A stretch of DNA of 64,000 nucleotides from Nemertoderma westbladi (GCA_032718475.1 JAUCBJ010008172.1:9601-73600); one strand, 5' to 3'; counted from the stretch's first letter, positions 1-41,397 are shown. Notes: generated by a model from the letters alone, not told the origin. A program made the numbers and translations.

Positions 1-650
1 TCCCACAGCCGTCAGCGGATAATGCGCGGGCCGAATCAGGTAAACCGCAACACCCGGCGACGGAGAGTAATAGGGGGATTGCGAGTATCCCCAGCGGCGT
101 GCGATCGAGCAGAGAGAAGCAGGTTGACGTCGCGAGAGGGCGGACGAAGCGTCGAGCCCGATCAGAAGAGGGAAGAAGAACAGTGGAGTTTAACCGGGAG
201 GTCGACGAGAGATCTCACGAGCGGGAATACTGCACTGAGAGGAGAAGAAGAGAAGACAGCAGAAGGAGTATCGCCACGAACGACAGGAGAGCGAGGACGA
301 ATAGCGAGCCGTTGGTGGTGGAGATGGAAAGGGAGAGTCGGTGGGGTCGAACTTCGGGAGATTGCCGTCGTCCCGGAGAGACATGACCTAACGAGACGCG
401 TTACGCGTCAAGAGAGGGGTACGCGATGTACCGGCACATAGACGAGAGTAGTAGAGAGGGTCGAAGAGAAACTTTCCGACGGGATATACCTACGGATTGA
501 GAGTACGGTAACCGCGGGGAGGATTATTCGAGAAGAATAAACTTCGATCCCGAGCAATACATACAGACTGTAGGACATACTGTAGGCCTTACTGCACATA
601 CCATAGGCCATGCTGACAGGAATAATGTAGGCGATAGGATAGCGCGGACG

Positions 651-2656
651 ATGGAACTAAACCCGGACGTCGCGGAGTACATACCGGCAGGTAGGCCAGA
701 AGCTGATAGGCCTATACTGGCACCAGTGCAGCAGTATGACTACAGCACGAAAGGATATAACATATACCCAGGGGAGGGGGGAATTATTGCGGATAGATGC
801 ATGGGCCCCAATATATTAACATCAACCCCAATACCAAACATACCGGTGGGGGGGGGGGGGGGGGGGCAGGGTGACATTCCCCCATCGCAATATCAACAAT
901 ATGCCCCGATAGGAGCAAGGACAACGATAACATTGGATGAAAATAGGTCGTGTGACACAGAAATATGGAGGGGGTTGCTACCCCCAATGATATACCCAAG
1001 CCAAAGAAAGGCAGAAAATAGAACGAGCGGACCGCACCCAACAGGAGAAACTATACAACATCCATCGAATCCATTGGAAGCGCAGGCGATGGGGATGGCC
1101 ACATTGATCGATGCATTAAAAACAAGGATCGAATTACCACCCGTGGAACCATTCAAATTCGATGGGAGTAGGCCGGAAGAATATCTCCAGTTTCGGCGTA
1201 TGTATAGCAATGAAATACTAACAAAGAACTTAACGCAGGCGGAGTGCCTAAAGTATTTGCAAGTATACATAGGAGGCCCAGCATACGACATTGTGAGGCA
1301 ATATCAGGGCATATAGGGCGGCTTCACGACGGCATGGCGGGCACTGGACAGGGAATACGGGCACCCGGCCAAGATCATCAGGCAGACCCTGAGAGGCATA
1401 ACATCGGGTGGCCTACAGGATAATCCCGTTAGCATTAAGACATTTGCGAACAAGGTCGACAAGGCGCTGATCGTGTTAAAGACGCTAGACGCGCCATACG
1501 AACTCAACGTGTCCAACAACATCACCACGATAGCGCAGGCACTACCGATGTGGTTGCGCAACAAGTGGAGGAAAATCGCTTTCTCCACTCGAGATAGGAA
1601 GGGTGCGGAACCGGGTTTAGAAGAAATGTCGAGCTTCTTAAACTACGAAGCTGAACTAATAACCGACCCAGTCTATAGCGAAGATAGCCTGGGGAAGGGA
1701 TCGAAGCCGGATTACCATAGACCGAAACCAGAGCACAATACAGGCTCAGGCAATCACTGCCATATGCAGCGACGCAGGGGACTGCAAGTCCACAGGTAGC
1801 CGAAAGTAAGACCACACCATGGAACGGACAGGGGAACAATAACAACACGAATAAATATAACCCCAGTACGTCCAGTAGGCCGAACCCAAACAATAAGAAT
1901 AGTAGGGACTTTGGTACAAACGCAGCTGCGATACGCGATGCACTGTATAAGGAGGGCTACAACCCAAAGAGCAAATGCCAGCTACATACAAATGCGCTTC
2001 ATCAAACCATGAACTGCAGGTACTGGCAAGCGCTACCTAGGGAAGATCAGATAGATTACGCGAGGAAGAATGAGATCTGCCCGCGATGTGTGATGAGTGG
2101 ACACAGAGCTAGGCAATGCAAGGAGACGCCGGTCAAGTTCGGTCAAAGGAAAGGCCAAACGATGGCAACGAGCACAGTAGGGGCGAAAAAGAGAGGAACG
2201 GTGCTACTTGGGGTAGTACCCGTGCGAGTGATTGGAGAAGGCAATCGATCAGTAACCACGCTAATGCTGGTTGATAGTGGAGCTGCCTTCACACTAGTCG
2301 AGGATTGGGTGGCCGAAGAAATATGATTGAGAACGAGGCCAAGCAGAATGGCGGTAACAACCATCTCCAGTAAAGATGAGGTCCTGGAGATGAGAACCGG
2401 ACGGTGCACCATCGCAGCAATAGCACCAGGATGCGACTATGGGGCGAGCATCGACCCCATCCAAGTGATAGAGTCAATAAACATCAATGCCAGACGGCCA
2501 ACCAACATCGAGGTCGAACAATATAAATTTCTGGACGATATTGACTTCTCAATCCCAGATGTGGACGTTAGGAAGGTATCCATCATAGTAGGAATGGACT
2601 GCCCAACGGCCCACGAAAGAATGCAAACGGTCTTCGGCGAAGACAATGCAGTATGA
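651..2656 (+). pseudogene. gag: Bel/Pao gag plus aspartic protease, disrupted
   Basis: FKFDGSRPEEYLQF gag motif, knuckle CPRCVMSGHRARQC, protease MLVDSGAAFT; in-frame stops ending at 1316 and 2326 and frameshifts near 1800 and 2650. Confidence 0.85.
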
Positions 2657-5600
2657 CCCGGTGGCGATACTGACACCATTCGGGTGGACGCTAAGTGGCC
2701 CAATCAAGAGCAAGATACCATTTAGGATGTCGGAGACATCAGGATGCATGTTCGCGGGAACTATGCAGGAAATGAGTGATGAGAGAGCAGAGGAGCAACT
2801 TAAAAGACTGCTCAGACAGGATTTTGAAGGATTAAAGGAGACCGGGGTCGGGACCTCGGTGGAAGACAAACAGGCTCAGCAGAGCGTAGAGGAGTCTATG
2901 AAGTGCAACGAGGGGCGGTACACCATAGGAATGGTATGGAAACTACCGAAGTTACCACTGCCCGATAATAGAGGGATGGTACTCAGGAGACTCCGCAAGC
3001 TGAAACAAACACTAAAACGGAGCCCCGAGAAGAATGAGTACATCCACAGAACGATTAAGAAGTACGTCGAGAAAGGATGGGCCGTGGAGTTACCAGTCGA
3101 CGAACCAAACACGGACAGGACATATTACCTGCCACTCCACGTGGCTTTAGACCCAAAGAAAGGTAAACTGCGGATGGTAGTTGACGCATCGGCAAAGACC
3201 AACGGAAAATGCTTAAACGACTATCTGTTAGAAGGTCCAAACATAAACAACTCGGGCATAGAGGTCCTACTTAGATTTAGGAATGGGAAACACGCCTTCA
3301 CGTATGACATAGAAGGCATGTTCAACCAAGTCCGTGTAACGGAGGAAGATAGCGACAGTCAACGCTTCTTATGGTATAACGGCGAGGAAGAACCGTCGAT
3401 AATACCAGCGTACAAGATGGTAGTACAGAACATGGGAGCCAAGTCGTCTTCGTTTACGACCACTATGGCAGTGAGAGATACAGTGAAGGGAAAGGAAGAT
3501 AGATACAGCACTAGGGCCGTCGATATGATTCGACGCGGCTTCTACGTAGATGACGGAATGGAGTCTGGAAATACGGTTAAGGAGATACTGGACACAGGGC
3601 GCGAGGTTCGCGACATCCTAAAAGGATCCGGCTTTAACCTGACCAAATTCCAATCCAGTTCGGAGGAATTTATCAAGGTGATAGAGGACAAGAGACCAGA
3701 ATCGACCATGGATAATCCCACAACAGCCAAAGGGCAGGACATGGCGAACAAGAGAACAGAATCTCAACAGAAGGCATTGGGAATCGTGTGGAACAGAGAG
3801 ACAGATGAACTGAAGTATCAGCTGAGCCAGGAGGGCGCAGACATCCACACGAAGAGGGGCTATGTGTCGTATATAGCAAGGATATACGATCCCCTAGGTC
3901 TAGCATCCCCATTATTAGTCACGGGGAAACAGATACTCAAGAGAGTATACAAATTGAAGGATGAGTGGGACGTAGAGGTACCAGAGGAAATCAAGAAACA
4001 GTGGAGTAAGTGGACAGGAGACTTGGAGAAGATAGGAACATATAACATGCCACGAGTGTATTTCCCGGATGGGAACATGACGAATCTGGACCTACACATG
4101 TTCTCCGATGCGTCGTTGGAGCCGTACGGAGCGGCACTCTATTTAGTACAACGAGAGGGGGCTCACAAGCCCAGACTGGCCTTTAGCAAAGCAAAGTCAA
4201 CGCCGCCAGATTCAGCATCAGTTCCCAAATTAGAATTGACAGCTGCGAGACTAGGAGTTAGAGCCACAGCCTACCTAGTGGATACTATTCCCAACATAGT
4301 GGAGACACACTACTGGACGGACTCCATGGTAGTGCTTGGTTGGCTACATAACGAAAGGACGAGATACCCAATATTCGTCGCGAATAGGGTGGACGAGATA
4401 AGGGAGACCACAGAATTGGAAAGGTGGCACTACTGCCCAACGGACGAGAACCCAGCGGACTTGTTATCAAGGGGCGTGGCACGCCACACTTTCTTAAAAA
4501 AGGAAGCATTGTGGCAACACGGGCCGCAGTTTCTGAGCGACAAGGAGGCCTGGCCGCCGATGAGAAAGGTGGACCCGGACTCAGGAGAGGTAGTGTCAGA
4601 AGGAGAAGAGGGAGATTCAGAGGGAGAAGAGATATACTCCCAGATGGTGAGGGAGATAAGGGACGTGCAACCTAAACCAGAAGAACTGTGCGATAACCCG
4701 ACAGATAAACTCCTCAGCTACAGCTCTAGTTGGTATAAGACCAAGAAATTAGTGGCATACTGGAGAGCCTTCGGGAATTTCCTCGCGGGAGTTGGCAAAG
4801 ACAAGAAGATCAGGACAACCATAGATCTGGAAGGAGCGGCCAAGGCAGTCATCCACTATGTACAACGGAAGAACTATGGCGACGAGGTGGAACGCGTCGG
4901 TAACCAACAGCACCTTCGACGGGACAGCGAGCTGATCACGCTGTCGCCACAACTTAATGACGACGGGATTCTAGTAATGAATTCTAGGGTGGGATACAAC
5001 AACAGCATAGTCGTACCACCGAAACCCATCATCATTCCCACAGGATCGCCAATAGTCCACCAGATTATCTGGGACTCCCATAAGTCGATATTGCACGGGG
5101 GCACCAACCGAACCTTCACGGAGATAAGGAGGACCTTTTGGGTCAAGCAGTTGAGGAAGAAGGTAAAAGCGGTAGTGGGGCAGTGCCAGACCTGCTGACG
5201 AGCGAAGAAGGAGCGAGCCATACAAGAGATGGCACCACTACCAGCGAGTACAGTAAGACAGCACGACCCGCCATTTACACATTGCAGTGTGGACATGTTC
5301 GGGCCAATAAAGATCAAGGTGATGCGGCACACGGAGAAACGCTACGGTATTATCTTCGTATGTAACAACACGCGGGCGGTAGGGATAGAACTCGCCCAAG
5401 ATGCAACCGCATCAGCATTTATTAATGCATTAGAAAGATTCAGAGACCGCAAAGGTGGGACGATCGCAGTAATGTATTCCGACAGCGGAACCAACTTTGT
5501 GGGAGCAGAGAACGAGATGGCAGAGGCCTTGGACATCTTGGAAGGGGAGGAAGTCAGGGCGGCCATGAGACGACGACAAGTAAAGTGGGAGAGAAGGACG

Positions 5601-6188
5601 CCGTATGCACCACATACACTAGGATGCGTCGAGAGACTGGTGGGCAGTTCAAAGCGTCTGATGGCGAAGCTGATGAACACCCACATGGTCACTGAGGACG
5701 TCTTAAGGACAGTGCTTGCGAAGTGCGAGGGTATCATTAATAGCAGACCGCTATATCCGGAGAATGATGACCCTGAATCATTAGATGTGCTGACACCCAG
5801 CCATTTTCTAATGGAAAGGCCAGCGACCATCGATATGCGGGGTGTAGACCCAGATGACATACATTCCCGCCAGAGTTGGAAGGTCGCTAAAGCAATAAGC
5901 GCAGAGTATTGGAGGAGGTGGGTTGAGGAATACCTACCCACGCTTCATAAAAGAAGCAAGTGGAGGAAGTCAAATAGGGAGTTAAGAGAGGGAGATCTCG
6001 TAATCGTTACGGATGATACTATCATCAACAACCAGTGGCGGTTGGCGAGAGTCGTAGGCACTTACTCCGATGAGGACGGAAGAGTCCGATCGGTAGAAGT
6101 GCGGATAGGTGGAAAGATCGGTGCGAAAGACAGGAAAACCTACAGGAGAGCTGTAGGGAAATGCTGTCTATTAGAAGGGGCACCTTAG
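2646..6188 (+). pseudogene. pol: Bel/Pao pol (RT, RNase H, integrase) with one in-frame stop ending at 5198
   Basis: RT YYLPLH, KLRMVVDAS, DIEGMFNQV, FYVDDG; RNase H FSDAS, WTDS, NPADLLSRG; integrase VDMFGP, YSDSGTNFVGA, GCVERL; ORFs 2646-5198 and 5229-6188 are in the same frame. Confidence 0.93.
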
Positions 6189-6295: not shown

Positions 6296-7000
6296 ATTAG
6301 AGTTAGTTAGTTAGGAGTTAGTTAGAAGGTACGTAGTACCTAGAGTTAGTCGGTTAGAAGGTACGTAGTACCTAGAGTTAGTTAGTTAGTCAGTTAGAAG
6401 GTACGTAGTTCCTAGAGTTAGTTAGTTAGTTAGTTAGTCAGTTAGAAGGTACGTAGTACCTAGAGTTAGTTAGTTAGAGAGTTAGTAAGAGTTAGAGGGT
6501 ACGTAGTACCGATAGTTAGTGGAGTTAGGAGTAGTAAGAGGGTACGTAGTACCGTTAGTTAGAGAGTTAGTAAGAGTTAGAGGGTACGTAGTACCGATAG
6601 TTAGTGGAGTTAGAGGTTAGTAAGAGGGTACGTAGTACCGATAGTTAGTGGAGTTAGGAGTAGTAAGAGGGTATGTAGTACCGATAGTTAGTGGAGTTAG
6701 AGGTTAGTAAGAGGGTACGTAGTACCGATAGTTAGTGGAGTTAGAGGTTAGTAAGAGGGTATGTAGTACTGATAGTTAGTGGAGTTAGAGGTTAGTAAGA
6801 GGGTACGTAGTACCGATTAGTAAGAGTAGAGTTGGAAGTTAGTAAGAGGGTACGTAGTACCGTTAGTGGAGTTAGAGAGTAGTAAGAGGGTACGTAGTAC
6901 CGTTAGTAGAGTTAGAGTAAGAGTTAGAGGGTACGTAGTACCGTTAGTTAGTTAGTTAGAGAGTAGTAAGAGGGTATGTAGTACCGATTAGTAAGAGATA
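6296..7000 (+). repeat. Tandem array (~30-50 bp units) of GGTACGTAGTACC mini-hairpins in a (GA)GTTAG low-complexity matrix
   Basis: About 16 copies of GGTA(C/T)GTAGT(A/T)C(C/T) counted by eye. Confidence 0.9.
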
Positions 7001-7467
7001 GAGGTGGAAGGGTATACATAGTATAGATATTAGTTAGTAGTTAGTAGCGAGAGGGGGGCATATGAGTACAGTTGGGTAGATCGTGTAGGCCACGCGACAT
7101 ATACTGCTGTACTGCACAGGCCCATAGCGTAGGTCAGAATGTGGATTATGAAATAGAATAATCCATAAGCAGTAAATAGTAGAAATAGATTAGAAATAAA
7201 AATAGAATAAATAGGGCTAAGAAAATTACAAATGATGGTAACAGGAGGAAAATTATTCTGGAACATAATTAAAGCAACGGACAGAAATTGCAAATAGGGT
7301 ACATTTGTTAGCTACAAAATTAAGTAATAGAAATTAGGCTAAAAGGGCGTAGTTAGATAGAAAATAGGCCATTATCGGACCGTACAGACCATCCTAACTG
7401 CATCACTCACTTATATTGCGCCTTGGTAAGGCACCACCTTATAGGTGAGCGATCGGAGGAGTTCGAA

Positions 7468-10032
7468 ATGGCGGGAAAACTGATCAGAAAGAGAAAGGCG
7501 GAGTCAGGAGGAAAGGAGATACTGGTGGATTTCACCGAGAGGCATCCGGAAGAGAAGACGAGAGGATACTACGAGAGGTTGGAAAAGGGTCACGCGGCAC
7601 GAGCGCTGCAGGACCACTTCCGGGAGATGCACGAACAGCGGCTGGTCGGGACCTACGGGACGCCGTCGCTGGACAACGCGATCTTCCAACACTTCCACTA
7701 CGTGGTGAAAGGGGACGAGGCGAAGTTCGGGATTCCGAAGTACCCGAGGGAGTCACCGAGGAAGGATTGGAAGAGATTCATAGAGTCCGTCAACAGGGGA
7801 GGATATATGATCCTAGACGACGAGGGAACCGTGGAAGACGAGGAGGGTTCGAGACGAGGATCAGCGGGGTCGGCCAGGACCATACTCTTACATTTGGCTG
7901 CGCCAAATGGGGACATTTTCTTATTCGATCTAGGAACGTATGGGAAGAAAGAGGGGCCGAAATTAAACTGGTTGCCGAAAGCGGTGCAAGTCTTGGTAAG
8001 AGAGAAGTCGACGACGAAGGTGGGATCGGCGATTCGCGAGGACGCGGAGAGAATCATCGGTCCGGACGCCACCAACCTCCTGGATATGCAGAAGGTCTTC
8101 ATGGCTATGACGGCACCAGATGGGTTGTGGGTAGTCGGGAACACAGGCCAATGCGGGGCGGTGGCAATGGGCCAGCTATTGGGGCTCGTATGCCACAAAC
8201 CGATGGACTGGGGGAAGTTCAGGGAGGAATACGGAGCAGAACTAGCGAACTCGCTAAAGTGGGGAGCGAGACCGGGAAAGCAAGAGGTATATCAATTCCA
8301 CAGAGGAGCGATAAAGGTATATCAGAAGCGATATATCCTGCAGGAAGATTGGATGATGATAAGTTTACTTAACTTATTCATGACCGTGGTTATCGAGAGG
8401 GAACCAGCGGCATTTCTGTTATCGGGATCACCCCTAAGCTACAGGAGAGCCTTTAAGACGGCCTTCGACGGTCTGGTAGACCACCCGGGGCTGAAGGGCG
8501 AGTCGGTGTACTACAATAGCCGACATCTGATAGACGGGGAGACAGATACGCCGTATCAGAGATGGGAGCAGCTAGAGACGGATAGACGAGAGGCAAAGCG
8601 ACTGGAAGAAGTCGCTAGACGGGAGAGGATAGAAGCAGAGGAGAGGGAGGAGGAGGCCAGGACGCAGAGTTACGGCTTCGAGGAACAGGCAGGCTTAGAC
8701 GAACTTCGTTGGACTTCATCAGGGAGTTCGGGGGAGTCTCTAGGGCGAGAACTGGGATGGACGGTGGGATCGCCGAAACAGTCGACGTCGGGGTTGCAAG
8801 CGATGCCCATACCAGCGGGCGCCGAAGGCGACCAACCGCCAAGGAAGTTAAGGGAGCTAGAGGGATGGAGATCTACGGGCGAGAGCCAAGGCGGGAAGGG
8901 ACATAGTGGATCCATCGGGATACCGGGGTTGGAGCCACTGCCAGAGGAGGAGGAAGACGACGACGAGTTCGGAGAGGTGCCGCCCATCGAGAGGATTGGC
9001 CACTCGGACACGGACTGGGTTGGCGGGAGGGTGGTGACGGCCAGTGGGGCGAGGGCCTTCTGGGATAGACCCGGCAAGCGGGCCTGGGTGCACGAGGAGC
9101 CGGCGATGGATTTCGCGGGGAGCACTATCAGGTTGGGCGAGCAACCAGGGACGGCACCACGGGTAGTATTCGGGGAGACGATGCCCGAGAGGGGCGAGGA
9201 GATCGACATAGACAGGGACACTAACGTGCAGAAGTTCGCCTACCAGCGACTCCACAGACTGCGGAGATTGCTTGGGACGAAAGACGATGTGGGGTGGGAG
9301 ACATTGGTACTCGGTTGCGACTACTGTGGGAGACAGACCCACCAGGAAAGGAGCTGTTTGTACCTGTTCCAAAAGGGAACCTTTTGTCTCTACTGCCGCG
9401 AGTCGAGCCACAGGATGGGGGCGTGTCCACGGTTGCATAACCGATGTCCGAAGTGCAACTTTCGGGGACACTACGGATGCCAGTGCGACTGGATGGATGA
9501 CGAAGAGAAGTTCAGAAGATTCGAGGAGTGGGCCGACGTCGGGGCCATGACGCGCCAGCGCATGAAGGCCCAGGAGTTCAAGTGGGGTTTCTTCCTCATC
9601 AATCAGGAGGCTCACATGGAAATCATAAAGCGGAGGCTACCGTTTACCTATCAAGAGGTAGCAACGGCGGCGTCGTATGCCGGGGTGATGAATACACAAA
9701 GGTATTTGGACAGGTGGACGCCACAGAACCGAGGGGAGTTTAGGGATTTCCTGGCAGAGCACGTGCCGCGGGCAATGAAGATGATCATATGGGACGCCAC
9801 CAGGGGGAGACAACAGGGCCACTTGGAGGGGCCACCCGCGAAGCGATATCGGGAGCTGATAACACCAACACCCAGGGAGCCAACGACCGGGATCAGTAAG
9901 GAGGTGGTGGCGAGGGTCCGAAGACAGAAAGCGGATCCCAGAGGAGCGGTAGTGACCAGGAAACGACCCAGGGAGGAGGACGGCAAAAGGAAAGACTTGA
10001 GGTGGTTCCCAAAGTCAGGGGGGATGAACTGA
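7468..10032 (+). CDS. Extra ORF of E1: DEDDy (WRN/EXD/Mut-7-like) 3'-5' exonuclease, coiled coil and three CCHC zinc knuckles
   Basis: Exo I ILDDEG; LLHLA..IFLFDL; LPKAVQVLVREKSTTKVGSAIREDAERI; NLLDMQ; Exo III-like QKRYILQED; knuckles CDYCGRQTHQERSC, CLYCRESSHRMGAC, CPKCNFRGHYGCQC; open 7423-10032, first ATG 7468. Confidence 0.75.
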   Translation: MAGKLIRKRKAESGGKEILVDFTERHPEEKTRGYYERLEKGHAARALQDHFREMHEQRLVGTYGTPSLDNAIFQHFHYVVKGDEAKFGIPKYPRESPRKDWKRFIESVNRGGYMILDDEGTVEDEEGSRRGSAGSARTILLHLAAPNGDIFLFDLGTYGKKEGPKLNWLPKAVQVLVREKSTTKVGSAIREDAERIIGPDATNLLDMQKVFMAMTAPDGLWVVGNTGQCGAVAMGQLLGLVCHKPMDWGKFREEYGAELANSLKWGARPGKQEVYQFHRGAIKVYQKRYILQEDWMMISLLNLFMTVVIEREPAAFLLSGSPLSYRRAFKTAFDGLVDHPGLKGESVYYNSRHLIDGETDTPYQRWEQLETDRREAKRLEEVARRERIEAEEREEEARTQSYGFEEQAGLDELRWTSSGSSGESLGRELGWTVGSPKQSTSGLQAMPIPAGAEGDQPPRKLRELEGWRSTGESQGGKGHSGSIGIPGLEPLPEEEEDDDEFGEVPPIERIGHSDTDWVGGRVVTASGARAFWDRPGKRAWVHEEPAMDFAGSTIRLGEQPGTAPRVVFGETMPERGEEIDIDRDTNVQKFAYQRLHRLRRLLGTKDDVGWETLVLGCDYCGRQTHQERSCLYLFQKGTFCLYCRESSHRMGACPRLHNRCPKCNFRGHYGCQCDWMDDEEKFRRFEEWADVGAMTRQRMKAQEFKWGFFLINQEAHMEIIKRRLPFTYQEVATAASYAGVMNTQRYLDRWTPQNRGEFRDFLAEHVPRAMKMIIWDATRGRQQGHLEGPPAKRYRELITPTPREPTTGISKEVVARVRRQKADPRGAVVTRKRPREEDGKRKDLRWFPKSGGMN

Positions 10033-10695
10033 GACTTCAATGTGGTACGCCTGGAAGGCGCCACGTGGGACTTACAAACTATTAAGTACAAATTCAAACT
10101 GATGCAAATAATTAAATAAGTGCAATTATATGTACGTACGTAGTAATCAGTAGTTTAGCAATGAAATATACGTTCGAAGTAAGTACTATAGTCATTCAAC
10201 CTTTCTCAATTAGCTACTGGGACTGGGGGGCTAACTGACTATGGTACTATGGACGAGACACCAGACGACTTCACATTTCTTGAGTACGACGGCACAAAGG
10301 GGGAGTGAGATTCGTCAGAAGGGATGGGGTAGTCAAAGGGAGGTCGAGTAGAGGTGATAGTGCAGAGTGCAGAGAGAGTGCGAATACAATTCAAGTGTGT
10401 GGGAGGAATAAGAGGCTGAGTAAGGGACAGGGAAGTCCGAGAGTTAAGCGGTAGTGAGGAGAAGTAGAGGAGAGTCAGGGTGGGAGCAGAGTGGAGTTAA
10501 AGTGGCGAAGTGTTGGGGAAACAAAAGTCGTGTGAGGAGCGCACGATCGGCCCGACATGGGACGCCAGGCGAAACGGGTAGCGATATCATACCCATAGGG
10601 AGCGGCCTGGAAAGCCGGCTCCGAAAGAAAATAGTTCCACCCCACACCCGATAATAGATCGGGATCCAGCGGAATTGTAGCGCACTTTAAGGTGG

Positions 10696-10733
10696 ATGCT
10701 ATCTTCTCACCGGGAAGATAGCATGGGGGGGAG
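10696..10733 (+). promoter_or_regulatory. Hairpin plus polypurine tract of E1
   Basis: ATGCTATCTTC-N7-GAAGATAGCAT stem followed by GGGGGGGAG, directly before the LTR TG. Confidence 0.8.
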
Positions 10734-11282
10734 TGTTAGCTTATTCAATTCAGCTAACACAAACCCATAAAGTCAACCGTTAAGCAATATTGGGGGCCAC
10801 GAGATTGGGTAACCAACAACTCGTGTCACCCCAACAAAGTGGGAAGGAGAACCACACAATAAGGGTCAGGGGCCAAACCCCTAACAGAGGGAGAATAGCT
10901 GGAGTGAACGGAAACACTCCAAAGGGCGCCAACAGGGACATTAGCCAATCAGAGGGGGGAAAGGCATCGGTTAGGTACAGTAACAAGGCCAACCCGTGCA
11001 ATATAACCAGTTGGCAGTAATCATCTCATTCAGTTATCTCAGTGTTATTGGTGTTACAGTAGCAATAGTTTAGCTAGGGAAGTACAGGGATTTCAATTAC
11101 CGTTTCCCGCCTTCCGTGTACAACAACGTATTATCAGTTATCTCATTACCAGTTATCTATATCTATATATACCCGAATGTTATACACGACGAATAACGCA
11201 AACTCTTTCACCTTTCACACACGGCGGGGACGCGTGAATTGACAAACCGGATAAACCGGGATCCTTCCTGGATCCCGTCACA
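10734..11282 (+). repeat. 3' LTR of E1 (549 bp)
   Basis: Starts TG after the PPT, ends CA; CCAAT and TATA-like AATATAA (~11000); terminal hairpin CGGGATCC-TTCCT-GGATCCCG. Confidence 0.85.
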
Positions 11283-11877
11283 TTGACATTTGTGTTGTTT
11301 CGAGGGATGAAAATAACCTTGGTGTCGAAGTTGTGGGACAAATATATCCCGTTTTTGTTAACGGTTGATGTGTACCTCATACTAACCTCATCGATATTCT
11401 CGTTAACATTCTTATCTATGTTAAAGTCGAGCAAACAGAATTCATCCACTCTGAGATTCAACCCATCGTAATATAGAACACCCTTCCGCTGTCTACCTAT
11501 ATCATCCGCTTCCCAAACGCCGACAAATCGTTGCCCTTCAAAGTCGTAGATATATTCAATGTACCCACAATCTTCGAACTCCATAAAATTCTCATCATGA
11601 ATTTCCTTCTTTTTTGGTTCAATACGGGAAAGAACGACTTTGCTGTAGATGCTTTGTAAGACAGCTAGAATTTTTCGCGAGATAAAAATTGATGCGCCGT
11701 TTTTCCCAATGCGTAAGTACGCATGATTTATTGGTGTTATAAGCAAATTGCCTCGGGTGTATTCCTTGTAATATTCAACGGCTATTTTATTATAATTGAG
11801 GAAGTCAAACAGGAATCTTATGTTCTGGTAAGTAAGACTTACCGATTCTTGCACGACATTGCGTCCTTTGGTATCAC
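11283..11877 (-). pseudogene. Middle part of PC4-like gene copy 1 (interrupted by E1 and by a LINE)
   Basis: Near-identical in translation to part of ORF 38623-39801 (KGRNVVQESVSLTYQ...KVIFIPRNNTNV). Confidence 0.85.
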
Positions 11878-12324
11878 TACTACTACTACTACTAGGATCG
11901 GCATGCTGCATTGCAGCTGCATTTTTAAGAATGCTGTGCCGGCTTGTCAACAAAATTGCACCGCCACAACTCCCTATCACCCATGACATTTGCTAGATCA
12001 TCCGCATCTTTAAGGCCAGTGTCCTTTAAGATGCGTCTCAAGAAAGTCATGGGCTGTCCACCATGCTTATTCACTCCATGAGGCTGCCAAAGTACAAGAT
12101 TATGCACTGGCTGGTCCTCACGGCGAAAGCAATGTCCTGCAAAGCGGAGGCGATTTTGTTCTAGTGTCAAGCTTGGGGGAACCAATGAGACACCTCCAAT
12201 GTTATATAGTGTCTGGTTGGAGATGTGTGCATTGTACTTGACACAATGAACCCGGCGTAGCATTCTTGTGAATGTGCCATCCAGAGATTTGGTGTCCTCA
12301 GCAGTTAGAGCCCAGCATGGACTC

Positions 12325-13955: not shown

Positions 13956-15086
13956 TTAACTCGTTTGGTACAACGTTCTCCGCCACTCTGGTGACAGGTT
14001 ATATCGTGTCAAGCCGGGACGATGGTAAGGGTTAAACGGCGATATTAAATGTCCGCGTCCCAATCCGGCTAGGTAGAATGGGCTAATATCTAGGAAGCCC
14101 ACAACTAGGGTGCCACCGACTAATTGTTCAGGTAACACTAGATCTTTGAGCAGTGAGTACAGCTCGGGAGGATCCGTCATACTAATAGGATCAAGAGTCT
14201 GAAGTCTCACTAGGGAATGAGGAGTTCTGATCGAGTATTCCGAAACTCTGATCATTGGTTTATTTAAGGATCGTCTGAGTCGAACGAGCGTAGGTGATAC
14301 ATCGAACAAGTTTCGCTCGAAACTCCCGTAAGTATAGCGAGTAAAACCGTGTTTAAAGCAACGTCTCCGCGGATGTTTATGTCTTTCCGTTTGTTGGTTG
14401 GGTCTTGGGCATTCATCGCAATAATACCCAAAAACGTACGTCTTGTAGGGGAAACGCGAGTGATCTTTCTCCAGCTTACAATATTCCTCCATCCGTTCGA
14501 AGCTATTCGGTACAACAGGTAGCGGTCGATCGGCGGTAAGATACATCATAGGGGAATAGAGCCGTTTGAGTTCTACCATGCGGTCATGATGTATACCTTG
14601 AGGATATCGAGTTTCTAGATTTTGTTGACTGGCAATATTGAGATATGTTTCTATCAGGAATTCCAGATAATCGTTGAAGTCGCTGCGTTTATCCGGCTCC
14701 TCAACGTCTTCTCTTTCGAGTCTGTTTCGAATAGAATTCTCGTGTTCCATTCTCGGTTTATCGTTCCGCCTCCGCTGGGTAGGATATTTCAATCGTACCA
14801 TTTCCCTTTTGGTGTCGACATTGTCCGTATCGTGTAAATCGATAGGATGACCAGTAGTTAAGAAGTCCACATACGTACCATTACGATGCGTATAGCGAGC
14901 GGTGAATTTCTTATAGTCCAACTCACACGTGAGCTGCTCTTGGGACATTGGCGGTTCGATATAACGACCATCGTCCTCCGCAGCAGTTGGACCAGCGTCG
15001 CCGTGTATCAAGCTATCAACAAACGCTTGTAAAGGTAGAGTATATCGCTCCCTGATACCAAGATCATCTTCTATCAACTCAATCAT
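13956..15086 (-). CDS. Orphan 376-aa ORF in the env position of E2
   Basis: Same sense as gag; degraded homologue in E3; CxxC...C..H cluster; no signal peptide or clear TM segment. Confidence 0.65.
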   Translation of the reverse strand: MIELIEDDLGIRERYTLPLQAFVDSLIHGDAGPTAAEDDGRYIEPPMSQEQLTCELDYKKFTARYTHRNGTYVDFLTTGHPIDLHDTDNVDTKREMVRLKYPTQRRRNDKPRMEHENSIRNRLEREDVEEPDKRSDFNDYLEFLIETYLNIASQQNLETRYPQGIHHDRMVELKRLYSPMMYLTADRPLPVVPNSFERMEEYCKLEKDHSRFPYKTYVFGYYCDECPRPNQQTERHKHPRRRCFKHGFTRYTYGSFERNLFDVSPTLVRLRRSLNKPMIRVSEYSIRTPHSLVRLQTLDPISMTDPPELYSLLKDLVLPEQLVGGTLVVGFLDISPFYLAGLGRGHLISPFNPYHRPGLTRYNLSPEWRRTLYQTS

Positions 15087-16718
15087 ATCTGCTATATAAA
15101 TTTATCCATATTATAATGAGTTTATATTTAGGCGAGCGGGCGTCGCTGCCTACCCCTCTCTGCCCCCGGACAGTGCGAGATCCTCAGCGCTGGTGTACTT
15201 TCGCCGAAGTGCCTATCGCCAATGTCGTAGCTGCACAACGACTACAACAACCAGAACGAGCCACTCCACCGTCCGTCCCAAAGGCTTAGATATACTTCAG
15301 GTTCTTACTGGAGAGTTAGGGTTACTTTCACAATTGCGACTCGCTACTGTAAACACACCTTAGTAGTAACATTCACCTACAAACACACAAATTCAACACA
15401 ACTGCAACAAACTGCACACATTCGGGCCATTTGTCCGTTAGTCAGTACCTTCCAGAATGTCACTGTATTTATTATGTATCCTTGGATACTAGCAGTGCGC
15501 TATTTATTCCCTATGCTATTCAATGGGGCATGCTTTCTATTGTTCTTTTAACTCACTTCTAATTCTAGCGTGGTTGTTGCCATGGTGACATTATGGAAAG
15601 CTAGCGGTAGAATTAGGGTAATTCTCATGCATACAGATCTGGGATGCTATTTAATAGTAATTCTTTAATGGTCAATATCCCCTTTATACATGATTCTATG
15701 AATTTTATCGGCTATTGACTATACATTGGAGATTCTCGCACACAAATACACTTAATAGAGTGAATCTCTGCTCCCATGATCTATTAATTAATGGAATTTT
15801 GGGAATGTTATAAATTGTATAAAATGACAATTTATTAAATTCATTGAAATATCTGAATTTAAATTTATTCCCGTAAATTTTATTATTTAATGTTAAATAA
15901 ACGTAATGTTATTCCAGAACGTGTCTGGGGACTGGGATCCTGGATTCTAGGAATTTTGTCTTTTTAAGAGTATCGGTAAGTGCTACGATATCTTAATCGA
16001 CTAGAATGTTAAAGGATCTAAAATTTGACAGATTTTGTAAATATTAATAATTAATATTTAGGATGGGCACCAGTTTATTCCAGAACTTGTCTGGGGACGT
16101 TAACCACTGATTCTAGAATTTTGTCTTTCAAGTATATCGGTGGGTGCCGCGATATCTTAATCGACTAGAATTACAGATGGTCAAAGGGTTTAACAGATTT
16201 ATTTTGCGTTATACGCTACTGTTAAAGGGACATCACGCTACTATATGTATTATTTAATATACGGTATGAGAGCAATATCGCACGAAGCAATGTCAGTGTG
16301 AAGAGGCAAGTCGTTTCCAAGGTCTACCCAGAGCTTGGTTTAGCCGAGACATGAGGATCTGAACTTTGCATTCCTAATACTCTGCCTACCAATAATACTT
16401 AAATATAGTAGTGGCTTTATTGTACTTTAATAAGTACGGATATTTCATCTTACTGTAGTCACGTATTTATAATATGATACGGACAGTAAGGAAAGAGAAA
16501 AATAATTATTTCTCGCCGTCGCACTAAATATAATATACATAATTAACTAATAAACGCGAATATATTGCACTAATCTACTAAATAATCGCTAAAATAACAT
16601 TCTACTAAATAAAATTAAAGAAAACGATTATAATAAAATTACATAATAATACATACATAATATAAAATAATAAAAATAAATATAAAATAATGTAGTCACA
16701 CACCCACTCCGTATGTTG

Positions 16719-19700
16719 TTACGTTATGGAGTCCCTAGATATTTGTTGGATTAGGGAGGTGGTCGTGGGAAGAGTATCTTGCCTTCCATAGTTTCCGGAC
16801 AGTTTTCGGTCTCTTTCCAGTAAACATAAACGACCAGCTGGGCGATTGAGTGGTTGTGTTACTTTCTCCGCTCCCTTGGCCTGTCTAATCTTCGCCGGGT
16901 TAAGATGGGGAGGCCATTCATCTTCTTTACTTAGGAAGTCGGGTTCACCTAACCAGTCTGGAGTATCTGTAAGTTCTTGAGGAGTTGCTCCTCTGGAGGC
17001 GATGTCGGCTAGATTGATCGTCTCGGGGCAATGTCTCCGTTGATCTACATTGGAGTTGATGTCGTCATTATCTGAGGAGTATGGTGTTCCCTCAGTTGGG
17101 TCGTCAACTTCACTGCTCTCCACTTCCCGTTCACTTAATTGATATACCTGTTCTTTTGGTAATCTTTCCATAAGAGTTCTACGAGAAGGGCCAGTAAAGT
17201 ACCAACCTACTCTAGTTCTTCCCGCATAAACTTGTAGAGGTTGCGGTTGAGCAGGCCGTTTCTCCAATGTCTCGAGCGCTTCATGCGCATTTTGACCGAT
17301 GAGTATTTGGACTCCAGGGTAATCGGTGTTGAATCTAGGTATTTCAAACTGCTGGGTGAAATCGTCCTCATCCCAGTTATAAGGTTCCACTTGGCTGGTA
17401 GCGAAGTTCTTTATCGCTAACATTTTTACTGACCTTATGCTGTGTTCTCCTAGTTCATCCTGGGGGGTGGACAACGCACCTACATAATAATCTGCGATTA
17501 CTGTAGATTTCCAAACCTGCATAATTCCTGACATGTTTAGCTTAGTTCGGAACTTGGGTTGTCCAGCAAAGATGTCTTCGGCTAGTTCTTTGTCGATGAA
17601 TGTTCCTGTACTACCGGAGTCAAGGAGGGCGTTCACTACATAACTCCTTTTAGGTCCGTGGACCCTTACCTGTACTACAGGAAATTCTCGGATTCCTACA
17701 TTGGAAGGTGGTGCTTTCCAAGATGGTTGTCTGTCAGAAGTAGTTAGGGGGGGCTCGCTGTCGGTGTCTTTTTCATACGTAAGTGCTCGATACACTGCGG
17801 TATTTGTTAGGTAACAGGATTCGTTTTCGTCGGAGAATTCGTCCGTATAGAATCCTTCCATCTCAGAATATTGGTCAGTGTCGTTCACATCACTGAATTG
17901 GACATGTAGTTCGGACTCACTTACCTGACTCGGGCTGTTTCGTTCGAATTCCGTGTGCAACAAGATATGATGTTTTGCGCCGCACTTTGCACACCTTACG
18001 TCGGAGTAACAGGTTCGCCGTTGGTGTCCTCGTCTGAGGCAATTATAACACAACCGCTTATCCCACATGACTTCATGTCTGTCCTTTAGTGATTTCCTCA
18101 GGAATTCATCACACGCACTTAAACGGTGGGGCCCGTCGCACAACACACATTTGGGCTTGATGTTACTTACTTTAACATGTGCTGTGTGGTGCACGCTCGT
18201 TCTTTCCTCGGGCTTTCTCACCTGAATTCTCTTGGGAGACGTAGGAGGAGTTTTTCTTACCTGTTCTCTCCTGTCATTGGTTCGAGACTTGAATTTACTT
18301 ACCTGTTCTTTAGGCGTTTTATTGACATAATAAGCTCTATCAGTGTCTTTCCTGCTATCCTCTCCTTGAGAAGTCTGGCTTTCGCTGTCGTCTGTATAAC
18401 ACACTGGTATTACCCTTCTCCTAGAAACGGGTTTCTCACTTACCTTGTTTTCCAGTGTCTTCTCTCTGGACTGCCTTAGGAGCTGTAATTTCACTTCTCT
18501 ATCTAAGAATGACATGAGATCAGCCATGGTAGGGTCTCGTTGTTGTTGTTCCATCATATATAACACTTTCTTGTCCCAGCGTGTACCTACTCCACCCTTG
18601 GGCAAAGTAGATGCTAAGGCTCCTACAACCATAGAATTCTGGTATTCATGAGACTTACCTAACCAATCTAGTTGTCTACAGATCTCCTGAATCTCGTCGG
18701 AAAACTCTATAATCCCGCTGCTAAGAAACTTTCGGGGCGCCATTAATTTCGCATATAAATACCTAGCTATGTTAGTCCTATTACCATACCTGATGTTTAG
18801 TGTATCCCAAACTTGTCTTAATCCATCAGGATGTCCAATAAACTTTGACGCCATTAACTTGTGAGATCCTTCCAAGCACTCGATGAGGAATCTAAGTTTC
18901 TCTCCGTTGGATAGCACAGAGTTCTGTATGTTATCTTTGTAATATTCATTAAAAGGTAACCATTTCATCTCATCTCCATTGAACTTGACTATCTCTCCAA
19001 CCTTTACCGCTTGCCGGGCTTCGGATTTAGCCATTTGACGCGTAAAACTTTCTTGGGCCATCGTGTTATTTAATATCGAATTATCGGTATAGAAATTTCT
19101 CGGATTATGATCCGGTCTATAGGGAATATCATTATCAACAGGTCTATAATTACCCTTAATAGGGTTGACTATAGGAGTTTCTACTTCGCTAGCAGTATAT
19201 ATGCGTGTAGGCTCCACACCTTGTGCATGAGATACTTCAGACCTAACAGGTTGACACATTGTTACAGGGGGTGGTGGTATACCCTTTTGAGTATTTACTA
19301 ATTTATCGCGTTCTAGCGCGATACTTTGCTGCACTTCTTGCAACTCTAATCTACTTTCCCTTACTGTGCCCTTGAATTGCTGAACGGTCTCCTGCATCTG
19401 TCCGAGCAGGAGATCCATCCCCCGTCGTCTCTCATCCACCCATTCAACCGCCGAAGCGGGATTCGCCAACGTTGTAGCGGGCGGACGAGGGACAACGGGC
19501 GACAAATCATGAATATTTCGCTCGGAGTCCAGGGCATGAACTGTCTCATGGGCTGTTCTGCTGGGCACAGGTAGCTTAGTGCTGTGCAAAGGGAATTGAG
19601 AGGTAGGTTCAGGGAGTACAGGTGTCTCTACGACCGAAAGGGTGGCTTCGGGAAAAGGCCTAATTATTTCAGGCTCATCTACTATAGTAGGGAGTCTCTC

Positions 19701-21529
19701 TATTGTAATTATTTGGTCTGTGGGTTCTATACTACCTAAGTTGGTGTTATTTAGTTGCCTTCGTACAGCTGGAGGCAAATCAGGCAATTTCTGACGGTGG
19801 GATGTTCTTTTACGTCTGCTTAGATGAGATCTATTTCCTTTGCCTTCAGTGTCGGTGGTATCGCCTTCCTCAGATGATGTATAACCTTGTCTTTTAGGAG
19901 TAGATCGATTCATCATCTGCATATTACTAGCTGTTAACTGTTTATTAAAGTTGTCTTGTCTCTCTTGAAGATTTTCCAACTCTAGTTGGGTTGTCTCTTC
20001 AGATGCCCTCCGTTCTGCTTCTGCCACTGCTATTTTTCTTTCCGCTTCGGCCACCTTTCTTTCCGCTTCTGCTGCTGCCACTTTTCTTTCCGCTTCGGCC
20101 GCCTTTCTTTCAGCTTCTACTGCTGCAGCTGCCACCTTTCTTTCCGCTTCGGCCGCCTTTCTTTCCGCTTCTGCTGCTGCAGCTGCCACCTTTCTTTCCG
20201 CTTCGGCCGCCTTTCTTTCGGCTTCTACTGCTGCAGCTGCCGCTTTTGCCTCTGCCGCTGCCGCTTTTGCCTCTGCCGCTGCCTCTGCCGCTTTTCTATC
20301 CACTTCTACCGCTTTTCGTTCCGCTTCTGCCGCTGCCACTACCGCTGCTGCTGTCTTTCTATCTTCTATACGTTTTTTCTTTACTTGTTCTTCTTGAACC
20401 TTAGCGATGCGGATGCTTTCATTGAATTTAGCTTGGTTCGCAGCTAACCTATCCACATCGATTGCATCCAACACACGCTGGGCTCCTTCACTATTAGGGC
20501 TAAGCCCCTCTAACCTTCTCCTCAACTCTTCATCACCTAAAAAACGTTGATAGTCTGACAGATAGATGTCAATGGCATCCCTCTATGCGGTTTCTCTGCC
20601 GTCGCTTCACTTTCCACTTGGGAAAAAGTAGCGTCTGTTGATTCTCCATGGGTTGAGCGCTCCTCCAGCTGAGCTTTCCACTGAGCTGTTCCTTGAACCT
20701 GGCGACTCACCCGTTGAAACCAAGTCTTTACGGCAACTTGCAACGACGTGTCTTGTCTTCTTTTAGAAGCCTCCTCAAAGGCCGATAAGATTAGCCTAAT
20801 TCGCAGAATTCTTTCTCTAACTTGATAAAGCAGTTGTCCCTGCTCTTGAGGTCCTTGAGGTTGTTGAAACAGTTGTTCTTTTACTCGCTCCATAGAGCTG
20901 AAGAATCCCTGTGCGTATCCGGCTGCGGACCTCTTCCACACAGCTGGATCGATGGTTTCCTTGGCTACTCCCATCCGGTGTATGTCTTCCCAGGCAGCTT
21001 CTGATAAATCAAACGGGAGTCCGGGTCCGGGGAAGTTCCATTGCGACTCGACCATAGACTTCAGTTCTTCCCTTGTGTATCCCTCATAACTATCTTTAGT
21101 TGATCGCTTACTTCTCGCCCAATCGATCTGGTGTTCTTCCACCGCGATCAATAACCTAGTGAGTACGGCTGCAGGAAGGATGAGAAGGGGATCCGAATAA
21201 ACCGCATCCGTCATCCTTGCTCCGCGCTCGGGTGTCAGCTCTACAGTATCTTCACTACTGGAGCTGTCGGGCCGCTGAGAAATAAGTTCTTGGCTCGCGG
21301 GTTGTTGCTGTTCCGCTGCTTCTTGGTCCCGCTTGACCTGGGCTCGAGTGCCTATGATAGACCTACGATGTTGGACTAGCCTAGGTTCTGTTATTACTAC
21401 TGGAGGGATGACTTTCCTCACAGTGGGAGGTGAACTGAATTTAGGTGTGGACGGTTCTACACCCTTATCTGAGTCGCAGATAGTTACATCTAATAAACTG
21501 TCTGACAGGTTCTGCTTAGTATCAGACAT
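16719..21529 (-). pseudogene. gag: E2 gag-protease fused to RNase H and integrase C-terminal remnants; one frameshift near 20580
   Basis: KFNGDEMKWLPF; knuckles CVLCDGPHRLSAC, CYNCLRRGHQRRTC, CAKCGAKHHILLH; protease ALLDSGSTGTFI; then RHCPETINLADIASRG and LNRPAGRLCLLE. Confidence 0.88.
20010..20355 (-). repeat. Coding minisatellite (AEAERK/AAAA coiled coil) in E2 gag
   Basis: Repeated GCAGAAGCGGAAAGAAAG units on the element strand; far shorter in E3 and E4. Confidence 0.85.
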
Positions 21530-22869
21530 GTTTGTTTGCACAGTTGAATGCCTACTGCTATATTACAGTCTAAGCAAGTCTAGTAATTCAGCCTTAACTG
21601 CTAGCCTAGTAATTAATTACCGATACTGCTACTCAGTGTAGCGTGATATATATAATATTAGAATACCGGTATGCTTATGGTATATATAAGTATTATTATA
21701 CAGACTAGGTTTTTCACAAAATACCTTTATATAATCTTAGCACAAATATATATATATATAATAGGCCTATCGTGGATACCGGTATGCAGTTTACACTTAT
21801 AGTATATATAAGTATAATTATTAACTAGAATTAATTACAGAATACCGGTATGATTTCAGCTTAAGTTTATGAAAATAAAGATAATAAGCCTATTGTAAAT
21901 ACCGGTATATCAATTATTTTAAATAATTGAATTTCTGAATTTTAAGGGTTACTTGGTTACTTTAACTTACTTTATTGCCGTTATTTAAGCAGTAGTCCAA
22001 CTGATATTGAGACCTAATTGTTATATGGCAGGCCTACTATTTATAAATCGTTTGAGTTGATTTATAATATATATATACCCGTTTAATGGGTTTTGTCAAT
22101 GTTTGAAATAAATGTTATTATTTCTGGGGGAGTCACTACACATAAGCTGTGCGCTCTCAGTGGAGTGCTACTTGTTAGACACTAAAACAAATAATTCTAA
22201 TTTACCTAAGTTACTTAATACTACAAATTACGTACAATTCGGGTTGAGATTACAATCTCTAAATAAACACAAAAATTTAATTACAAATACACAAATACAA
22301 ATTTTTAGGGTAATTTTACAAGAAGTCTACTAACCAGCCTAACAAAGGGTTAGAATATCTGGTTATTACAACGGACAGGTTACTACGGTATTTGAAAATA
22401 ATAAGTAGTAGTAAATATACTGCGTTGTCCAGATAGGAAAATACCACCGCCTGACGACCTATAACCGTATCGCTATAGGTACTACGTTATGTATCACGGA
22501 GTGTCCCTACCTAGAAGTTAATTACCGCGGTCTACCAGAACCAACGTGCCTATTAACCACTTTACAACACAAATACACTGCCTACACACTAATTGCTTTC
22601 GGAAAGTACTGTACACTAAACCCTAAATTAGGTACAAGTACTTGTATAACAAATAATTAGTAGTTAAAAATACTTGAACAGATAAAAGAACCACGGTATC
22701 TGCCGGAGTGACCAAAGCACAAAATCTCCAGTCTTTACCTACGCCGAGCAGCCCTGATGTAGTACCGGGGTTAGTTTAACTATAACGGTATGTATAACAA
22801 ACACAATTACTGTAGGAATAAACTTGGGGATATGAATGTTGCGAATAATAGCATAAACTCTGAATAATA

Positions 22870-26929: not shown

Positions 26930-28167
26930 GATCCACGAAGCTAAGGAAAATCAACTACTTTCGCTAAGAAAGATTTTCCTTAGCTGAGATGGTCTATTCA
27001 TAGTGGGCTATTTTACTTGTATGGAGCAGATTAGTTTTTTTTTGATAGGTGAAAAAACTAGTCTTTAAAAGTACCCTGAAATTTTGCATGTATATACTAC
27101 TCGTCGAGGCGCATCTTTTGGACTGGGTCTCATATCCAGGAAAAATCTGGTTTCCATGGCAACGGACTTAGAAAAAAGTCTATGTATTTCAAGTCAATAT
27201 TTATAACTCTATTTGTAGGAAAACTATAATAGATATAAACTTGGGGTTTCTCAACACAACTATAAGGTCCATAGCAGAGCCGATTGAGGTTAAATAGAAA
27301 ATCCAGTTACCTTGGCAACCGGGCTAAACAGATGTTAAAATTTATAAAATGTTAATTTGAAGCCTAAGGTTAAGGTGTTATGACTTGGGACCAACCCCTA
27401 CCCCCACTATATAACTTATTCTGCGTCCGAACTTGATTGTTCTATTTTGCAGTTACCATGACAACCGCTGTAAACAGATGTTTTTATACAAAAATTACTC
27501 ATTTGGACATAGACTTCGCTATAAAATTTTACGAAACTGGTTATCTGTTACCTAGACCACTAGTTGGAACTTTTAGTGAAACTAAAAAACATTCCAGAAA
27601 TATCTAGTTACCGTGGTAACTGGAGTTTATTACAGATTATATCATTCAAGTCTATATTCATAACTCTATTTATAGAATAACCGCAATAGATATAAACTTG
27701 GGGTTTCTCAACTCAATGATAATGACAATAGTCGAGCTGATTGAGGTTTATTAGAAAATCCAGTTACCAGCGCAACCATGGTAAACAGATGTTCAAATTT
27801 ATAAAATGGTTATTTGAAGCATAACATTAAGGTATTTCGACTTGGGACCAATCCCTACCCCCACTATATCACTAATTACGCATCCAATTTAAATTGTCGC
27901 ATTTTTCAGTTTCCATGACAACCACTACAAACAGACGTTTTAACAATTAAATCCTTTGTTTTACACATTAACTACTCAATGAAACTGAATTGAAGTATGT
28001 GTCACCTGGAACCACAAACCGGATCTTAATGTAATCCTCAGCAGTTCTAGAAAATTCCGGTTGCCATTGTAATATGAGTTTTTAAGGCATATGCCTCTTA
28101 ACTCTGTAAAGCAATAAAGTGATGAGTCAAAGAGTGTTTAATTTTCCTTAGCTTCGTGGTTGCAACC
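26930..28167 (+). mobile_element. HINE-like element copy 2, head-to-tail, 3' hairpin missing
   Basis: Highly similar ~1.24-kb tandem copy; ends at GTTGC followed by a short inverted AACCACG. Confidence 0.72.
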
Positions 28168-28253
28168 ACGATTTCATTGTCTCATTTTGCTTATGTAATT
28201 CAATCGAGAAATGTGACTTATTATTATCCAAGCCGAATCACGAAAATTTAATT

Positions 28254-28958
28254 ATGTTCACTGATTCATTATCAGGTCACGTCCTATCTAAGACTGCGGT
28301 TTGTTTGCATAAACCTATTTTTTTAGGCCAAGCTGTATTGGACCTGTCGAAGTTAGATTATTACAGTTTCTTCTACGAGAAATTAAAGCCCCTGGAAGCC
28401 GAATTAAATTGTAGTATAAATTTGTTAGGTGGGGACACAGATTCTTTTTTTTTACAGTGTGTTGGTTTATCCCAACACCAATTTTTATCTGCGTTACAAT
28501 CAAAAAAAGTTTTAGACTGTTCAAATTATCCTATTACACATCCGTTGTATACAGTAGAACAGAAAGGGAAATATAGATATTTAAAGGATGAAGGGAAGTC
28601 TATCCCGTTTGACCAGGTTATTTTACTTAGACCAAAATATTATAGCTTTCGTGGGGGGTCAGTTCCAAAACGTGCCGCTAAAGGCGTAGGAAAAATGGTT
28701 ATAAAAAATAAACTCTCCCACGAATCATATTTAAAAGTATATAACGAGGTTAGCGAGCATTACGAATACAGTCAAAGGTTTCAATCTAATTTACATAAAA
28801 TATACACCGTTTCACAAAGAAAAAAATCGCTAACACTGTGGGAAGATAAAAGATACTACACATCGACTAATGAAAGTCTACCTTACGGCCATTATAAAAC
28901 ACATTTGGATCGTAAAGCGCCTGCCCCTAAGCTTTATATACCGCCCATTATAGAATAG
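28254..28958 (+). CDS. polB: Protein-primed family B DNA polymerase, C-terminal part (5' part lost)
   Basis: KPIFLGQAVLDLSK, GGDTDSF, LKDE, LRPKYYS, AKGV, EDKRY, SLPYGHY. Confidence 0.88.
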   Translation: MFTDSLSGHVLSKTAVCLHKPIFLGQAVLDLSKLDYYSFFYEKLKPLEAELNCSINLLGGDTDSFFLQCVGLSQHQFLSALQSKKVLDCSNYPITHPLYTVEQKGKYRYLKDEGKSIPFDQVILLRPKYYSFRGGSVPKRAAKGVGKMVIKNKLSHESYLKVYNEVSEHYEYSQRFQSNLHKIYTVSQRKKSLTLWEDKRYYTSTNESLPYGHYKTHLDRKAPAPKLYIPPIIE

Positions 28959-28967
28959 CGGATTGCG

Positions 28968-30318: not shown

Positions 30319-30458
30319 AAAATATCACCCATAATAACGGCTGTAAGAGGCAGAAAATTAGCCCAATCCCGCCGGGGGTATAGACCTAGTACCTCTGGTA
30401 CACGCGTCAACCGTCAAGTTTCTAGGTTTCCCATCTACTGAGTGGCTACCTATCAACA

Positions 30459-41385: not shown

Positions 41386-41397
41386 GATAATAGGTAC

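Follow-up and report, generated by a model that had tools for sequence, protein, structure and literature searches.

An accessory gene with a DEDDy exonuclease fold and three zinc knuckles in a lineage of Bel/Pao retrotransposons

Our analysis revealed that a Bel/Pao retrotransposon of Nemertoderma westbladi carries, between pol and the polypurine tract, a third open reading frame (ORF3) that encodes a protein with a DEDDy exonuclease fold, three zinc knuckles and a helical domain. ORF3 is inherited vertically with its Bel/Pao lineage and tracks the divergence of the integrase. With confidence and doubt about evenly balanced, we regard it as an accessory gene of that lineage whose product is an RNA-binding factor acting on the element's own RNA, 3'-5' trimming being likely but dispensable. 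The sequence analysed, here called the window, is a stretch of 64,000 nt (GCA_032718475.1 JAUCBJ010008172.1:9601-73600); the element lies on its plus strand, as do all element features given below, and the 5' part is cut off by the window start.

The element was assigned to Bel/Pao, as in the first-pass annotation, because its Pfam domains run in the order gag, protease, reverse transcriptase, RNase H and integrase, with Peptidase_A17, DUF1759 and, after the integrase, DUF5641. The broken gag and protease region (1..2656), whose 5' end lies beyond the window, contains a weak DUF1759 match in two pieces, a knuckle and a weak aspartic protease. Pol (2592..5198) comprises reverse transcriptase, Pao-type RNase H and the integrase zinc finger (Peptidase_A17, E 4.7e-40; RVT_1, weak; Integrase_H2C2) and ends in a premature stop; the integrase core and C-terminal DUF5641 follow (5199..6188; rve, weak, E 4e-4; DUF5641, E 2.5e-25). 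The pol stop at 6188 is followed by a tandem array of ~44-nt units (6316..7003; TRF, 14.5 copies, score 661), an A-rich stretch and ORF3. The array is satellite-like and varies among copies, some of it being left out in the contigs of other copies. Further downstream, a polypurine tract read directly from the sequence (10725..10733) adjoins an inferred 3' LTR, TGT...ACA (10734..11282), which ends at the start of homology to an interrupted repeated ORF and is unpaired, since the 5' LTR lies beyond the window. Because the polypurine tract and TGT...ACA come 3' of ORF3 and the unrelated homology starts exactly after them, ORF3 sits within the element. A strongly folding, multi-hairpin RNA is predicted just 5' of the polypurine tract (10560..10740; z -4.6, 0 of 200 shuffles); it had no Rfam match above threshold, and such folding is not general, as only 4 of the 12 relatives compared have tails that exceed the pol controls. 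Contigs from 4/4 runs (three studies, one organism label) cover all element bins in many variants, and the element is therefore a multi-copy family, although contig depth gives no copy number.

Other features were observed in the window. The repeated ORF belongs to a family of ~400 aa with no Pfam match (11180-11992, minus; 38602-39801, plus; 41394-41969, plus), one member of which is interrupted by the element. Three copies of another Bel/Pao-like family, in which gag and protease are very long, are also present (16719-21562, minus; 48500-52530, minus; 59673-64000, plus); two of them end in no more than short RNase H/integrase-like tails, which suggests that the family is non-autonomous. Polinton/Maverick-like fragments at 28152-33555 (polymerase-like, weak A32-type ATPase, integrase-like) were assigned by eye, with a weak Pfam match for the ATPase only, and a 381-aa ORF at 13956-15101 on the minus strand had no Pfam match.

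ORF3 extends from an ATG at 7468 to a TGA ending at 10032, giving 854 aa with no internal stop, in agreement with the uninterrupted ORF of ~855 aa described earlier between pol and the polypurine tract. Between 12 and 45 stops interrupt each of the other five frames, and the chance of an open frame of this length is ~1e-16. The DEDDy-fold domain (7606..8541, aa ~47-358), located by Atlas, profile, Foldseek and structure alignment, is followed by an acidic, Gly/Ser/Pro-rich linker predicted to be disordered from its composition and a pLDDT below 50 (8677..9303, aa 404-612), the three CX2CX4HX4C zinc knuckles (9316..9486) and a conserved helical domain of no named family, recognised by alignment (FE..AD.G..T..R...WGF; 9499..9813; pLDDT 72-97). 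With the family alignment, AlphaFold gave a pLDDT mostly of 80-95 for two regions, the nuclease core and aa 620-770; from the single sequence, the pLDDT was 32. The protein has no predicted signal peptide or transmembrane anchor, the highest 19-residue hydropathy (1.35) falling within a nuclease helix, and no env match in Pfam was found in 15 ORF3s among 19 ORFs scanned.

The nuclease domain was missed by Pfam and NCBIfam, and PDB searches with the single sequence returned only weak knuckle matches. Atlas placed aa 60-350 among 3'-5' exonuclease clusters (25 of 30 matches in the PF01612 set, score 0.94, 177 of 256 features). A family profile built from 36 full-length members matched EXD2 best among PDB sequences (6k17, E 2.5e-14), over a stretch that takes in the helix before ExoI, and then trypanosome RNase D (9e-8, both domains), Lin28-type knuckles, Egalitarian (1e-5) and WRN (4e-4). 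Nibbler/Mut-7 scored E 0.17, leaving EXD2 as the sequence-closest solved relative, and Rrp6 was absent among the 58 family-profile matches. The profile matches suggest that the nuclease domain may derive from EXD2. ORF3 differs from EXD2 and WRN in lacking host domains such as a helicase or a membrane anchor and in having an insertion before ExoIII. Scanned with Pfam, neither the window ORF3 nor any of 42 relatives showed an HRDC domain, but the nuclease itself also escapes Pfam. Against a profile of 44 bacterial DEDDy domains, the family profile aligned over 176 columns, all three Exo motifs included (probability 96.6, E 5e-10); HMMs of the bacterial domains scored the ORF3 protein weakly (best E 0.007), and a crude position-score test of the single sequence against them was not significant (z 1.2).

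The structural comparison used an AlphaFold model folded from the family's own alignment, in which known nucleases were not included. The top Foldseek matches were all of the RNase D/Egl/Nibbler/EXD1/Rrp6 type, with trypanosome RNase D first, and structure alignment with VIA-align gave Z 13.6 for Nibbler, 13.4 for Trypanosoma brucei RNase D and 13.1 for WRN (rmsd 2.9-3.8). Only DEDDy-fold proteins appeared among the top structural matches (Z ~13, rmsd 2.9-4.7, rows tied), and the matches stop near aa 358. The model thus has the DnaQ-like fold of the DEDDy superfamily, which is the DnaQ/RNase D fold that the first-pass annotation had proposed to seek with AlphaFold and Foldseek. The solved and structural matches include DEDDy nucleases that act on DNA, namely EXD2, WRN and NrnC.

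Residues D117 (7816) and E119 (7822) of ExoI, D192 (8041) of ExoII, and Y289 (8332) and E293 (8344) of ExoIII fall in the catalytic columns when aligned with the 44 bacterial domains. The exonuclease motifs noted earlier are therefore real, but the domain is only nearly intact, since E293 stands where Y-x3-D is expected and the site reads DEDE. Among 33 complete proteins, 13 have a DEDD site, 6 a DEDE site with the same Glu and 14 a degenerate one. Five DEDE proteins, including the Nemertoderma ORF3, form one clade (support 0.895), indicating that Glu at the fourth acid is inherited.

The three knuckles reported before were recovered as exact CX2CX4HX4C matches at aa 617, 640 and 660. By alignment, the knuckles and helical domain are the most conserved part of the predicted protein: the ten Cys/His knuckle ligands and R666-G667 are invariant in 36 aligned proteins, an invariance partly built in because the 81 related proteins were found mostly through the knuckle region and the 80 related loci through the knuckle pattern. 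For the helical domain, Atlas gave leads only, with scores under 0.9.

The 81 distant relatives came from a full HMMER scan (E up to 0.001) and matched mostly through the C-terminal region. Of the 44 proteins, including the query, in which more than 200 aa precede the knuckles, 37 have the same N-terminal domain. As only 1 of 42 family members has a PF01612 match in Pfam, the family is nearly invisible to it and has probably gone unnoticed by annotators. The knuckle module, written as a DNA pattern, occurs once in the window and in none of 100 shuffles; in metagenome contigs the pattern matched at least 120 stretches, and 80 loci (62 groups at 70% identity) were analysed. The majority of these belong to a small number of assemblies whose accession prefixes adjoin one another, and they therefore do not define a host range. 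Word-based searches with ORF3 found no homologs, single-protein scans of metagenome, prokaryote and viral contigs, phages and plasmids found no related loci, and the knuckle pattern had no match in viral contigs.

The nuclease domain lies in the same ORF as the knuckles in 49 of the 80 loci. An integrase like that of the window lies directly upstream on the same strand in 41 of the 80, and in 34 of the 40 whose upstream sequence reaches 3.5 kb or more; it was not found in the other six, one of which (L228) is a chance bacterial match. Peptidase_A17 was present in 19 and DUF5641 in all of the 20 pol ORFs scanned of the 41, and in one locus (L180) a 797-bp repeat pair encloses both pol and ORF3. 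Among the contigs, six form closed circles; four of these measure ~9-10 kb and have roughly 500 nt after ORF3, which leaves no space for env at that place. The window element is far from all loci (integrase at most 36% and nuclease at most 26% identity).

Some relatives differ in layout. Four (L162, L172, L200 and L208) have ORF3s of 1,300-1,600 aa with no Pfam match; in the last three, 500-900 aa precede the nuclease, and in L162 no integrase was found upstream within its contig. Two Bel/Pao elements (L204 and L216) have an ORF3 with the knuckle module and no nuclease match in 900-1,060 aa, a possible domain swap, and in two proteins (P0002 and P0047) the knuckle module is duplicated.

Nuclease and integrase identities co-vary among 30 elements (Mantel rho 0.82, 0 of 999 permutations), and near pairs are 83-90% identical in the nuclease and 83-85% in the integrase. 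In 13 of 13 pairs, which were hand-picked and share members, pN was lower than pS in both domains. The dN/dS of the nuclease domain was 0.09-0.53 in 11 unsaturated pairs and 0.22-0.43 in 4 dead-site pairs. Within the window's own family, 9 of the 10 segregating ORF3 variants listed fall at codon position 3 (p 4e-4); these, like the private changes given below, come from the 40 best-supported of about 1,665 variant rows, clustered in one 120-nt stretch. The gene is thus neither absent from sister elements nor evolving neutrally in them, either of which would have refuted the first-pass reading.

On an integrase tree (quick method, 39 rows, with the window on a long branch), all 11 scored members of a 16-row clade (support 99) are catalytically degenerate, while a 13-row clade (support 98) is DEDD throughout. 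Overall, the site is DEDD in 22 of 42 complete loci and DEED in one of 42. Catalysis alone cannot account for the function, because an entire clade retains the gene despite a dead site; the fold and motifs underlying the nuclease role proposed earlier stand, and catalysis as the sole role does not. Since dead-site pairs are still under selection, the constant core appears to be the fold together with the knuckle-helical module, although the searches themselves selected for knuckles.

ORF3 in the window would need its own mRNA, because its frame differs from that of pol and 1.3 kb separate the two, and a subgenomic, spliced mRNA is the probable source of the protein. A pyrimidine-rich stretch with CTAAC and AG is a candidate splice acceptor (7381..7444): no other 60-mer of the element is as rich in pyrimidines as 7381-7440, and the AG at 7443-7444 scores best among spacer AGs, with 3 of 76 gag-pol AGs as high. 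The CTAAC (7394) and AG that had been pointed out as a possible acceptor are thus both present. Relatives lack a consistent acceptor (15 of 27 are pyrimidine-enriched) and two have TATA-like words, so an internal promoter is also conceivable.

Seven of 41 loci (L164, L186, L188, L191, L226, L233 and L237) have ORF3 in frame after a single pol stop, with 142-224 open codons from that stop to ORF3 (chance 0.0003-0.03 each). Stops in the contexts TGA-CGG and TGA-CAA-YY favour read-through. All seven stops are TGA followed by C, and five are in these contexts, which make up 2% of background stops. ORF3 stays in the pol frame in 9 of 12 loci of the dead clade versus 6 of 20 others, the loci being kin, and most also have a Met at a fixed distance 5' of the nuclease domain. 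Neither a conserved peptide nor codon periodicity was seen in the spacers that would be read through, and indels of non-triplet length are many there. In some relatives, read-through past pol is thus a lead only.

How might an RNA-binding factor of this kind work? The RNase D of T. brucei (PDB 7c42-7c4c) likewise has an N-terminal DEDD exonuclease and C-terminal CCHC knuckles, and the available text of its description reports that the knuckles raise RNA binding and cleavage (PMC7797062). As described there, it is a mitochondrial cellular enzyme with four knuckles beside the nuclease, whereas in ORF3 a linker of 200 aa precedes the knuckles, which number three and are joined by an additional helical domain; the common architecture is probably convergent. 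By analogy, the knuckles and helical domain of ORF3 would grip RNA and hand its 3' end to the nuclease domain, which may trim 3' ends where the site is acidic, cutting by the DEDE site being putative. In the dead-site clades, the same surface could bind RNA without cutting, as does the exonuclease-homology domain of Egalitarian. In the accessible part of the report, this DEDDy fold binds stem-loop RNA, including a retrotransposon signal, and its catalytic residues are dispensable; Egalitarian is a host dynein adaptor with LOTUS-like domains and no knuckles (PMC13186709). The ORF3 protein, made from a subgenomic mRNA in the window element and perhaps also by read-through in some relatives, would then protect, process, localise or package the element RNA.

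A possible but less probable explanation is that ORF3 counteracts host defence: its protein would trim or sequester piRNAs, siRNAs or their precursors, or decoy partners of the EXD/Mut-7 type, and so weaken silencing. The structural neighbours do include the small-RNA factors Nibbler, EXD1 and RICE1, and separate expression in most elements would permit action in trans. Dead-site versions are kept, as are the host piRNA pseudo-nucleases Maelstrom and EXD1, according to the part of PMC5408684 available to us. However, purifying selection on the nuclease domain is steady and close to that on the integrase, with no sign of an arms race at present resolution, and in sequence the closest solved relative is EXD2 rather than Nibbler/Mut-7. 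More speculatively still, the elements may form an old Bel/Pao branch in which an EXD2-like nuclease or pseudo-nuclease and a new knuckle-helical RNA-binding domain serve as a counter-silencing or RNA-chaperone factor, switching between a subgenomic mRNA and a Gag-Pol read-through extension (TGA-CGG/TGA-CAA-YY), the catalytic site being lost mainly where read-through signals occur.

An in-particle DNA editor, which would proofread or trim cDNA 3' ends during reverse transcription or before integration, is unlikely. Among its relatives in sequence, EXD2 and WRN are the best known, and in the seven in-frame loci a protein read past the single TGA-C stop would enter the particle; however, the site is dead in five of these seven, the dead-site clade is old and intact, and a 200-aa disordered linker with retroviral-type knuckles suits RNA handling better. 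Of the three roles offered by the first-pass annotation (silencing suppressor, RNA-end processor and cDNA proofreader), proofreading is the weakest.

That the host has kept the ORF3 of the present copy while gag-pol decayed is very improbable. Gag-pol is indeed damaged as previously described (at least three stops and two frameshifts): stops lie at 1314, 2324 and 5196, with two more upstream in the gag frame at 384 and 498, and the frame changes near 1721-1799 and 2592-2656. The Nemertoderma genomic copy is a decaying copy. Under uniform decay, however, an unbroken ORF3 beside 5-7 gag-pol breaks has a probability of 0.05-0.16, all 7 of the 7 private ORF3 changes listed for the window copy are non-synonymous, and many other copies cover ORF3 in 4/4 runs. 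Given that chance, there is nothing special to claim for this insertion, and the meaning that had been implied by an intact ORF3 next to a broken gag-pol is not supported. We give almost no credence to passive cargo, that is, a recently captured host gene or nested insertion without function. The 1.3-kb spacer with its tandem array does part ORF3 from pol, but no introns or second LTR pair were seen, the purine-rich strand bias is that of pol, and the gene keeps its place in 34 of the 40 informative loci with co-divergence and purifying selection.

The RNA-binding accessory gene that we favour has a published counterpart outside Bel/Pao. Juno and Vesta of bdelloid rotifers are Ty3/gypsy-like. 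The available texts describe in these LTR retrotransposons a DEDDy ORF3 shared with Athena/Terminon elements (PMC5408684; restated in PMC5718144; Terminons in PMC6431247). Like the ORF3 studied here, it is an RNase D-like DEDDy ORF past pol in the env position, with an altered catalytic motif and no transmembrane domain (PMC5408684). Compared by description only, it differs in having a DEED motif and no knuckle module in the text available, whereas the present family is Bel/Pao, has DEDD, DEDE or dead sites and combines a triple knuckle with a helical domain. Dada DNA transposons also bear a DEDDy nuclease, but within the DDE transposase and with a proposed role in DNA-end processing, in the available part of PMC3706591. 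We found no report of a DEDDy ORF in Bel/Pao in the open literature, a scope outside which lie subscription journals, Repbase and GyDB, and neither "DEDD" nor "exonuclease" occurs in the accessible text of PMC13524379, PMC8220671 and PMC7998251. A DEDDy ORF3 is thus known from bdelloid LTR elements, and a Bel/Pao family with such an ORF3 was not found in print.

This study also provides insights into the accessory genes of animal LTR retrotransposons, which, besides env, are almost uncharted. The sole published DEDDy case is confined to rotifers, and its function was not shown there. The 62 groups among the 80 loci offer a natural series of active-looking, DEDE and dead clades on the integrase tree. 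Because this series is tied to the integrase tree, the idea that transposons carry RNA-processing or anti-silencing enzymes of their own is now testable with purified domains.
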